Source: a virus | Lineage: Duplodnaviria; Heunggongvirae; Uroviricota; Caudoviricetes | DNA length: 35,874 bases | Reading direction: 5' to 3' (one strand) | Virus record (IMG/VR): IMGVR_UViG_2913172373_000003 | Span: 1 to 35,874 of that record | In this document: positions 29,306 to 29,954 of the stretch, one piece after another | Numbering within the stretch: the stretch's first letter is position 1 | How the letters are laid out: each line of letters opens with the position of its first letter | Made by a program: the position numbers and the translations under genes | The notes under the pieces: model-generated | What the model was told of the DNA's origin: nothing | The model's database searches: none | What the model saw: the letters and a program-made list of their open reading frames with translations, nothing else

Positions 29306-29338
29306 TTGACAATGTACCTTTGGGATACATAATGTATC
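29306..29338 (+). promoter_or_regulatory. strong sigma70-like promoter with overlapping palindromic operator (pL-like)
   Basis: TTGACA (29306-29311), 16-bp spacer, CATAAT; 17-bp perfect palindrome GGATACATAATGTATCC (29322-29338) overlaps the -10. Confidence 0.6.
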
Positions 29339-29771
29339 CAAAAGAAACATGCAACAGGCAAGATTCAAACAAAATTTGGTTGTAACACGGCGTATGGCAC
29401 ATGCGTCGTTAGCGGTCTGGAGACGTTAAAGGGGACAATCCACTCCTTGCTCGGGCAAACAAACCAGGTAGCCGGAATGTGCAAGTCAATGATGATGCTG
29501 ATAAGACGCCTAACCAGCGTGGCGATTCGGTTTGACGCCTGGGAAGAGACCAGGGTGCAACGATGAGGGCATTTATGGAACCGCGACAAAGTGTGGTGCC
29601 GTAACTGGCTAAGTGCTCTCAGCGTTGTGGTGAATGCGCAGGCTGATGCGCGAAAGACATTGCAGCTATTGCGGAAAAGAGCTGTTCGGCGGGGCAATTA
29701 AACGCCCGTGAGAGTCTGAAATAACCGCAAGCCGGAGATCAGCACCGGTCACCACAACAGCCACTGCTTTG

Positions 29772-29817
29772 GCGGTACCAGTTTGTACACTTGCTTCCGG
29801 CTGGTGCCGCTCTTTTT
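29772..29817 (+). terminator. terminator-like hairpin closing an ORF-poor transcribed region
   Basis: GCGGTACCAG...CTGGTGCCGC 10-bp stem (one G-U) with 19-nt loop, followed by TCTTTTT. Confidence 0.4.
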
Positions 29818-29954
29818 ACAAAACAGAGAAGGGCATCACCGGACGACGGGCTCATAACCCAATCCATCCGGGCGGCTGCCACCGCAGGTGTTCTTCTCTG
29901 TTTTGTGGAGAAACCAACCGACCTTGCAGGGTCGATATGATGAGGAGCAGCAAA

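Follow-up and report, generated by a model that had tools for sequence, protein, structure and literature searches.

The small RNA (sRNA) DicF of the cryptic prophage Qin is cut from the transcript of a DicA-repressed promoter, RNase III giving rise to a 190-nt species and RNase E to the 53-nt form; its 3' end is created by intrinsic termination, and RNase III can also cut just 3' of it (PMC5069750). The single-stranded 5' region of DicF (UUUCUGGUGAC) is used for pairing with xylR (PMC5069750). Another early phage RNA, the put element of phage HK022, acts without any protein factor (PMC9378689), and the structured RNAs GOLLD and ROOL are typically found in prophages next to tRNA genes, some of them containing tRNA-like inserts (PMC5737381). 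Here, these systems are compared with the leader of the early-left operon in IMG/VR record IMGVR_UViG_2913172373_000003, a stretch of 35,874 nt that was analysed as a whole (hereafter, the window) and that represents an apparently complete lambdoid prophage. It is proposed, with a probability of roughly 0.55, that this leader is the untranslated 5' part of a repressor-controlled early-left transcript and a polycistronic precursor of non-coding RNAs, of the Qin dicBF type. The promoter-operator of the leader and its relationship to DicF are variations on known themes; the structured core RNA that it contains is new to Rfam.

About 615 nt separate the promoter from the ATG of the first early-left gene at 29955, and this region is non-coding. 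A first-pass annotation, made from the letters of the window, had listed only open reading frames (ORFs) of 27 codons or fewer, which is correct for ATG starts on the plus strand but overlooks two ORFs with TTG or GTG starts (39 and 36 codons) and, on the opposite strand, one of 110 codons (29365-29697) that is annotated as a gene in phage mEp460. On either strand, every ORF of the leader is broken by a frameshift, a stop or a lost start in diverged homologues, while blocks of nucleotides stay invariant, and the small ORFs and the antisense ORF were rejected because they are not conserved. The frame annotated in mEp460 is no exception. The 26-codon ORF at 29349, which had been put forward as a possible Arg-rich peptide, lacks a Shine-Dalgarno sequence, has its ATG outside the block conserved across immunity types, and is disrupted by a frameshift or stop in most homologues (7 of the 10 with 95% identity or more, and almost all of the more distant ones).

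The conserved structure of the leader centres on a core with five helices and a pseudoknot, followed by a long closing stem, P6 (Table 1). Alignment of 25 diverse members revealed long invariant blocks between hairpins of variable length. Across these sequences, the 45 pairs assigned to seven helices were formed in 96.2% of cells, versus 30-44% when the partners were slid by 1-3 columns; 19 pairs were altered on both sides, and the observed values were matched in 0 of 500 shuffles. For example, pair 18-30 of helix P1 is AU in 13 sequences and GC in 12, a pair of P2 is CG in 18 and UA in 7, and a pair of the pseudoknot is CG in 20 and AU in 3; three sequences have AACC/GGUU in place of CACC/GGUG in the pseudoknot. 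Every pair is formed in the window, which bears the AACC/GGUU variant. Nine pairs of P6 likewise have changes on both sides. Core covariation was found again in a set of 33 sequences from which the window was omitted and in which ten bacterial genomes were included, pairing with slid partners amounting to 30-46% over both tests. The examination of RNA structure and covariation in homologues recommended by the first-pass annotation therefore yielded strong covariation. A long-range pairing between GCACAU of helix P1 and AUGUGC of the junction, suggested by RNAalifold, was rejected; both segments are invariant, and the local P1 hairpin is preferred because its pair 18-30 covaries. The single-stranded junction GGUAGCCGGAAUGUGCAAG (29467-29485) is invariant, as is the 19-mer GGTAGCCGGAATGTGCAAG at the same positions, which is carried by at least 120 IMG/VR loci among the matches listed. 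Taken together, the compensatory changes and invariant blocks show purifying selection on both the core and P6, and the working view is that the core would act by binding a conserved host factor and not by base-pairing.

A covariance model of the core, R1, was built from 33 sequences, again without the window, in which it finds a single copy over its full length (model positions 1-159, span 29385-29557; 137.3 bits, E 1.6e-42); an nhmmer profile matches the window with E 2.2e-35. No family of Rfam 15 matches the core. A scan of the whole window at gathering thresholds returned C4 and isrK only, both on the PR side, and permissive scans of the leader gave chance-level matches plus a weak match to DicF, so that the Rfam search advised for the leader RNA produced no family at threshold. 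Nevertheless, the element is common: its 258-nt form matches 1376 of 5426 complete E. coli genomes, with no feature annotated over it in any of the 40 RefSeq matches listed or in the record of phage P1. Phage P1 carries it, and so do Stx2-converting phages and phages of Klebsiella, Salmonella and Enterobacter. Members from genome collections belong to Citrobacter, Kluyvera, Escherichia whittamii, Kosakonia, Phytobacter, Superficieibacter and Enterobacter, all Enterobacteriaceae. This taxonomic range is a lower bound, because the contigs were scanned with a 16-base gapped pattern that gave mostly chance matches, and 10 Enterobacteriaceae loci were confirmed by nhmmer. R1 was also applied to the retrieved HK022 early region, to the Qin dicBF region, to the leaders of HK633 and swi2 and to the late region of phage RCIP0098, and found no match in any of them. 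No description of the core was found in the searchable literature, the coverage of which is incomplete; the Pas sRNAs lie in the late region.

The remainder of the leader ties it to the Qin dicBF locus. The sequence that follows P6 in phage Ayreon is ~90% identical to the 5' part of the 190-nt Qin DicF precursor, and the Qin ydfC-dicF spacer holds a P6-like stem (dG -35.6 kcal/mol, z -3.6). By homology with the Qin stem, P6 of the window is probably an RNase III site. Further downstream, a hairpin (dG -21.2 kcal/mol, z -3.7) is followed by a C and a U5 tract (29813-29817). The first-pass annotation had recognized a terminator-like hairpin with a T tract at 29772-29817, which holds, although the stem starts one position earlier and has 13 bp and not 10. 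In 33 loci this stem is kept and its loop varies. The hairpin of the window and Ayreon can be aligned with DicF over the 3' two-thirds of the latter (TTTGGCGGTAYCAGTTT followed by the terminator), and because of this relationship it is a terminator of the kind that forms sRNA 3' ends, in line with the earlier suggestion that an sRNA might be encoded here. Like DicF, it has a GGCGG/CCGCC-type terminator stem with a U tract, and it lies in a PL-type, repressor-controlled operon, 3' of the homologous RNase III stem and precursor.

In both loci, a cI/DicA-type repressor controls an operon at the PL-equivalent position, the untranslated stretch is long and includes a homologous long stem, the precursor segment is homologous as well (in the Ayreon-type variant), and a GGCGG...CCGCC terminator with U tract, with an RNase III-type structure immediately 3' of it, lies ahead of the genes. 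They differ in that the Qin leader follows ydfABC, whereas the leader of the window starts directly at its promoter; Qin has no ~170-nt core; and Qin is cryptic, whereas the near-identical Ayreon, mEp460 and cdtI are isolated functional phages.

These features are best accommodated by the following sequence of events. Upon loss of the repressor, transcription would start near 29340, and the nascent RNA would fold into the ~170-nt pseudoknotted core closed by the long P6 stem, two small hairpins and then the DicF-related intrinsic terminator. Many transcripts would end there, as an RNA of ~480 nt. RNase III would cut within P6, and RNase E would probably cut further, leaving two products: the structured RNA, now a discrete species of ~170-240 nt, and a terminator sRNA like DicF. 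The remaining transcripts would read through the terminator, allowing expression of the genes from yfdP to xis, such partial read-through being itself a prediction. The perfect 20-bp stem beyond the terminator (29818-29906), probably a second RNase III site to judge from its predicted fold, would part the non-coding section from the yfdP-to-xis mRNA and trim the read-through RNA. Retention of the terminator is explained under this proposal because it forms the 3' end of an sRNA, with no extra factor needed.

Several observations weigh against a precursor of the dicBF type. The best Rfam match of the hairpin is indeed DicF (RF00039), but at 14.1 bits it falls short of the gathering threshold of 48 (E 0.44 in a 91-nt search, model positions 12-52 of 52). 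The 19-nt 5' block of DicF (UUUCUGGUGAC), present in Qin, is absent from the window and Ayreon, and the loop differs. In RNAduplex, pairing of the window loop with the ftsZ ribosome-binding site (RBS) was no better than that of shuffles (p 0.25) and left the RBS uncovered; the same loop-only test recovered the known DicF-ftsZ pairing with -18.8 kcal/mol and p 0.08. The RNase III site of Qin was placed by calculation, as the DicF 3' end minus 190 nt, and falls in the 3' strand of the P6-like stem. For the window, the transcription start, the efficiency of termination and the processing sites are predictions from sequence and folding, as is release of the core as a stable RNA. Finally, the constant place of the core after early promoters and before a terminator would suit a role in cis equally well.

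Other short sequences near the terminator were also considered. The motif CACAACA at 29753-29759, just 5' of the DicF-like hairpin, is kept in 33 lambdoid loci and equals the consensus of GcvB R1 targets, which the anti-sRNA AgvB uses. The idea of a GcvB sponge was dropped, as the duplex energy did not exceed that of shuffles and the window has five copies of the motif; Rfam gave no match to AgvB or AsxR. A sequence resembling the DicF 5' seed UUUCUGGUGAC occurs in the phage P1 locus (L004, 2700-2720) as ATTTTCTGGTGATGAC, directly downstream of the core and ahead of ban. At its apex, the 20-bp hairpin carries CGGGCUCAUAACCC (29847-29860), 14 nt with three G-C pairs that are identical to the anticodon stem-loop of initiator tRNA-fMet (metZ alignment); Klebsiella phage RCIP0098 has a variant with a single change immediately 3' of a tRNA-Arg (L005, 2528-2541). 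Judging from this identity, the copy could be what is left of a tRNA gene, or else a mimic or decoy, for instance for nucleases that target tRNA-fMet.

Expression of the leader can be assigned to a promoter of the PL type. As the first-pass annotation had noticed, a near-consensus promoter follows directly on the terminator of the cI-type gene, and a perfect 17-bp palindrome covers its -10 element (Table 1). TTGACA-16-CATAAT is the sole sigma-70 match of at least 11/12 on both strands of the window. First-order Markov simulations gave a mean of 0.33 such matches per window and one or more in 28 of 100 simulations; because they so often yield one, the match on its own is only moderately unusual, and the case for the promoter is made by position and operator besides its score. 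Three copies of a 17-bp site, TGTACC-N5-RKTACA, were found, two of them in the cI-cro intergenic region (28508-28524 and 28558-28574) and one in the spacer that separates the -35 and -10 elements of the leader promoter (29313-29329; repeat families D1, D2, I4 and I6), and these repeats offer stronger evidence of an operator than the palindrome does. The repressor itself is encoded by an S24-type gene (28592-29266, plus strand), the Ayreon homologue of which is labelled 'repressor/cI'; cro-like (28301-28525) and cII-like (27705-28073) genes diverge from it on the minus strand. Loci of the same immunity type have the identical promoter. Other immunity types have promoter-like sites of the TTGAC type 48-55 nt 5' of helix P1 of the structured RNA in some cases and, in further types and in epsilon15-like cassettes, promoter-like sites 90-125 nt 5' of it.

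RNA elements are also found on the opposite side of the immunity region, in the PR/cro-side operon. Here, C4 antisense RNA (27160-27247, minus strand; 80.7 bits) and isrK RNA (27272-27348, minus strand; 61.2 bits) were identified by Rfam as a tandem, both inside a 278-codon ORF (26872-27708) whose Ayreon homologue is labelled 'immunity region'; an antirepressor (Rha) gene takes the equivalent position in mEp460. The pair suggests an RNA-controlled module of secondary immunity or antirepression of the P1/Gifsy type. Among models of the C4 clan (CL00128), the match at 27160-27247 is the sole one in the window, and none lies in the leader.

The leader as a whole is 88-99% identical in cdtI, Ayreon, mEp460, PhiR-series, Stx2c, Stx2a and Stx2k phages, among others (blastn against phage genomes). 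In phages with another immunity region, homology starts at ~29352, just 3' of the promoter-operator, and conservation of the leader among phages that differ in this region is 96-99%. Parts of it travel more widely: 29374-29551 matches phage P1 (blastn), 29387-29630 matches the epsilon15-like phages phiV10 and Tyrion, and 29824-29874 matches Klebsiella phages. A 40-nt piece (29612-29653), made up of the P6 3' strand and the hairpin GCGCAGGCUGAUGCGC, matches T1-like, Klebsiella, Erwinia and jumbo phages, many of them unrelated, at ~91% identity. The leader is a chain of separate RNA modules. The first-pass annotation's proposal of a leader or antitermination RNA, or an sRNA, stands insofar as this is a promoter-proximal, non-coding leader with conserved structure; it had missed the modularity, the link to tRNA genes and the homology with Qin dicBF.

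P6 is absent from the copies of the core in phage P1, Kosakonia and Phytobacter, and the two modules are therefore separable. The same P6 stem and downstream hairpins close a different conserved 5' domain in HK633, where they form part of the PR' late leader, and in the T1-like phage swi2; the hairpins common to the window and these two phages are GCGCAGGCUGAUGCGC and CCGGAGAUCAGCRCCGG-CCACCACA. This second, 'type B' domain (GCGACTTTGCGG...TTAGAAACTGATCACAAAGATAAATGCAAACGA...) spans 430-720 of the HK633 locus (L131) and 450-720 of the swi2 locus (L132) and is unannotated there; in swi2, which is virulent, it sits 5' of a tRNA-Met. The variable apex of P6 contains T-arm-like hairpins, GGTTCGATTCC, CTGGTTCAATTCCAG and GCGGTTCGACTCCGC, in loci L102 (3630-3760), L011 and L132 (swi2, 640-700), which from their sequence look like tRNA-like inserts nested in the closing stem. 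In one locus (L087, ~3330-3400), the P6 5' strand is replaced by a terminator-like hairpin, followed by TGCTCTTTAACAA, the rrn-type boxA consensus; its presence hints at antitermination by Nus factors in some cassettes.

Transfer RNA genes recur next to the element. Of 127 loci, 27 have a tRNA-Arg(UCU) that begins where the 3' strand of P6 ends, most of these with one and the same offset, and in 17 loci of the P1-like kind, as in the P1 ban leader, a tRNA(CAU) ends ~15 nt before helix P1. Most of the remaining loci examined share the layout of the window, with a repressor-like ORF, a gap, the element, the leader and plus-strand genes, and the sizes of the repressors and the downstream genes vary among the loci. 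A strong terminator hairpin lies 3' of the element in 87 of 98 distinct loci, versus 38 of 98 control regions. The cassette of phiV10 and of a Klebsiella prophage consists of a promoter, a P6-like stem, the element, tRNA-Arg, a GGCGG...CCGCC terminator whose hairpin has a CU-rich loop, a further hairpin, a second terminator and a small gene. ARAGORN detected no tRNA in the window.

In the C1-repressed ban operon of phage P1, the core lies right after trnI, with ~79% identity and 133.6 bits to R1, and the leader also includes a DicF-precursor-like segment and type B sequence (parts of the domain, at ~380-640 of L004). In contrast to the window, this copy has no P6, is ~2.3 kb from the promoter and occupies a position that is unannotated in the P1 record. 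The 5' flank of the core, ATTTGGTTGTAACA (29385-29402 in the window), equals the sequence that follows the CCA end of trnI (L004, 2503-2520), which suggests that the lambdoid PL version may derive from, or exchange with, the tRNA-adjacent version. GOLLD and ROOL resemble the element as structured RNAs of unknown function that are prophage-borne, tRNA-adjacent and sometimes furnished with tRNA-like inserts; they differ in size (500-800 nt, the leader RNA being much smaller) and in range, belonging to other phyla, while the leader RNA is enterobacterial in the sample examined. Neither Rfam model matched the window or the leader, and the leader RNA is unrelated to both in sequence.

The first gene after the leader, placed at 29955 by the first-pass annotation, is confirmed by its Shine-Dalgarno sequence and its similarity to YfdP (Table 1). 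It is followed by yfdQ-like, yfdR-like and PAPS-reductase-like genes, genes of unknown function, an exonuclease gene and the excisionase gene (34497-34796), 3' of which a strong terminator (34808-34835) closes the early-left operon. No N-like family was found among the proteins of this operon, as the earlier failure to see a lambda N-like gene had indicated.

Table 1. Features from the end of the repressor gene to the first gene of the early-left operon; positions are those of the window.
Feature	Position	Strand	Details
Intrinsic terminator of cI-type repressor gene	29278-29305	+	Hairpin 29278-29297 and T run, directly 3' of ORF 28592-29266
PL-equivalent sigma-70 promoter, TTGACA-16-CATAAT	29306-29333	+	11/12 consensus positions
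Operator region	29313-29339	.	Site TGTACCTTTGGGATACA (29313-29329) overlapping 17-bp palindrome GGATACATAATGTATCC (29323-29339)
Core of conserved structured RNA	29388-29554	+	Five helices and pseudoknot, ~170 nt
P1	29388-29408	+	9 bp, GCA loop
P2	29413-29419 with 29465-29467 and 29471-29474	+	GUA bulge between; encloses variable hairpins
P4	29506-29509 with 29517-29520	+	7-nt loop
Pseudoknot	29512-29515 with 29529-29532	+	From P4 loop
P5	29538-29542 with 29550-29554	+	GAAGAGA loop
P6 closing stem, variable apical insert	29556-29629	+	29556-29575 with 29610-29629; dG -33.4 kcal/mol, z -4.1
Small hairpin GCGCAGGCUGAUGCGC	29636-29651	+	Position of tRNA-Arg(UCU) gene in relatives
Hairpin CCGG-AGAUCAGCA-CCGG, then CACCACAACA	29732-29760	+	Conserved connector, also in HK633 and swi2
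DicF-related intrinsic terminator hairpin	29771-29817	+	13-bp stem 29771-29783/29799-29811, 15-nt loop
Long hairpin, perfect 20-bp stem	29818-29906	+	29818-29837 with 29887-29906; dG -44.7 kcal/mol, z -6.7
Small hairpin (29919-29934), Shine-Dalgarno GAGGAG (29942-29947) and first-gene ATG	29919-29957	+	Read from sequence and fold
yfdP-like first gene of early-left operon	29955-30317	+	phrog_204 match, E 5.9e-49

Other explanations of the leader were weighed against a precursor of non-coding RNAs. The one with most in its favor, though rather unlikely, is that the core is a cis-acting processive antiterminator or anti-Rho RNA, comparable in function to HK022 put or Bacillus EAR and unrelated to them in sequence, which would modify RNA polymerase for passage through the DicF-like terminator and the long untranslated leader without an N protein. 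The pseudoknotted EAR sets a precedent for an antiterminator RNA of this kind. The core is the first element transcribed from PL-type promoters despite differing repressors and downstream genes, the position of nutL and putL; the operon has no N-like gene; a strong terminator stands between the element and the genes in ~90% of loci, reproducing the order of promoter, modifier site and terminator in lambdoid operons; and the invariant single-stranded junctions and pseudoknot would suit binding of a conserved host machine. The analogy with put extends to an RNA transcribed at once from an early promoter, in an N-less lambdoid phage, upstream of terminators. However, put measures ~70 nt, forms two stem-loops and is found at both PL and PR of HK022 (putL and putR), whereas the leader element is ~170-240 nt long, pseudoknotted, present in a single copy with none on the PR side, and also located beside tRNAs in non-lambdoid phages. 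A direct reading of the HK022 putL region revealed no similarity to the leader, in agreement with the failure of R1 there, and the nut- or put-like function suggested by the first-pass annotation thus lost ground. Moreover, the element occurs in tRNA cassettes with its ends coinciding with tRNA ends, at a distance of ~2.3 kb from the promoter in the case of phage P1, and the Qin dicBF locus works without a core. A strong terminator kept right after a constitutive antiterminator also needs an extra explanation, whereas formation of an sRNA 3' end accounts for it directly. A further explanation, in which a tiny Arg-rich, N-like peptide from the 26-codon ORF would serve the leader as a nut-like site, or in which the region encodes some other small protein, is largely refuted. 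A boxA-like UGCUCU in the P6 3' strand, followed by the small hairpin at 29636-29651, and the Arg-rich composition of the peptide speak for it, yet the boxA-like bases are paired in a covarying stem, the ORF is not conserved, all other ORFs, including that annotated in mEp460, are broken too, and no N-type protein is present.

It is improbable that the core lacks a function of its own and is a folding or processing scaffold, or an insulator, which protects cassettes of untranslated RNAs (tRNAs and DicF-like sRNAs) from Rho or exonucleases and offers P6 to RNase III. Such a role would agree with the fact that the core is always found in untranslated stretches together with other stable RNAs, with the sharing of P6 by a second, unrelated 5' domain, and with the separability of the modules, but it would not call for at least 19 consecutive invariant junction bases or a covarying pseudoknot across lambdoid, P1-like and epsilon15-like phages of several genera. 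Still less credible is a leader that is the decaying relic of a phage tRNA island, devoid of present function. The hairpin that here replaces the tRNA of relatives, the 14-nt fragment of the tRNA-fMet anticodon arm and the mosaic arrangement might be so explained, but not the purifying selection on core and P6, the conservation of the leader across differing immunity regions or its presence in a quarter of complete E. coli genomes.

The untranslated leader, read as a dicBF-type precursor, has implications for DicF, for phage tRNA islands and for early gene expression. DicF, until now treated as a feature of cryptic prophages, is connected with a broader family of terminator sRNAs that are DicF-like, vary in their loops and are found in functional phages, and phage 'tRNA islands' appear as recurring RNA modules linked by RNase III-type stems. 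Because these phages have no N protein, how the early-left operon, including xis, is transcribed beyond the strong leader terminator becomes a testable question, and the core sits where lambdoid phages put their early antitermination signals. That the core represents a new class of phage RNA acting on a conserved host machine is a tentative idea, possible though doubtful. If true, its most interesting version would have the core take the place of N at PL in a large group of N-less lambdoid phages, as a processive antiterminator or anti-Rho element made of RNA only, in which case the untranslated tRNA and sRNA cassettes of P1-like and epsilon15-like phages would also be licensed by the core; in an alternative version, the core would act as a sponge or decoy, its target being a host factor linked to tRNA metabolism.

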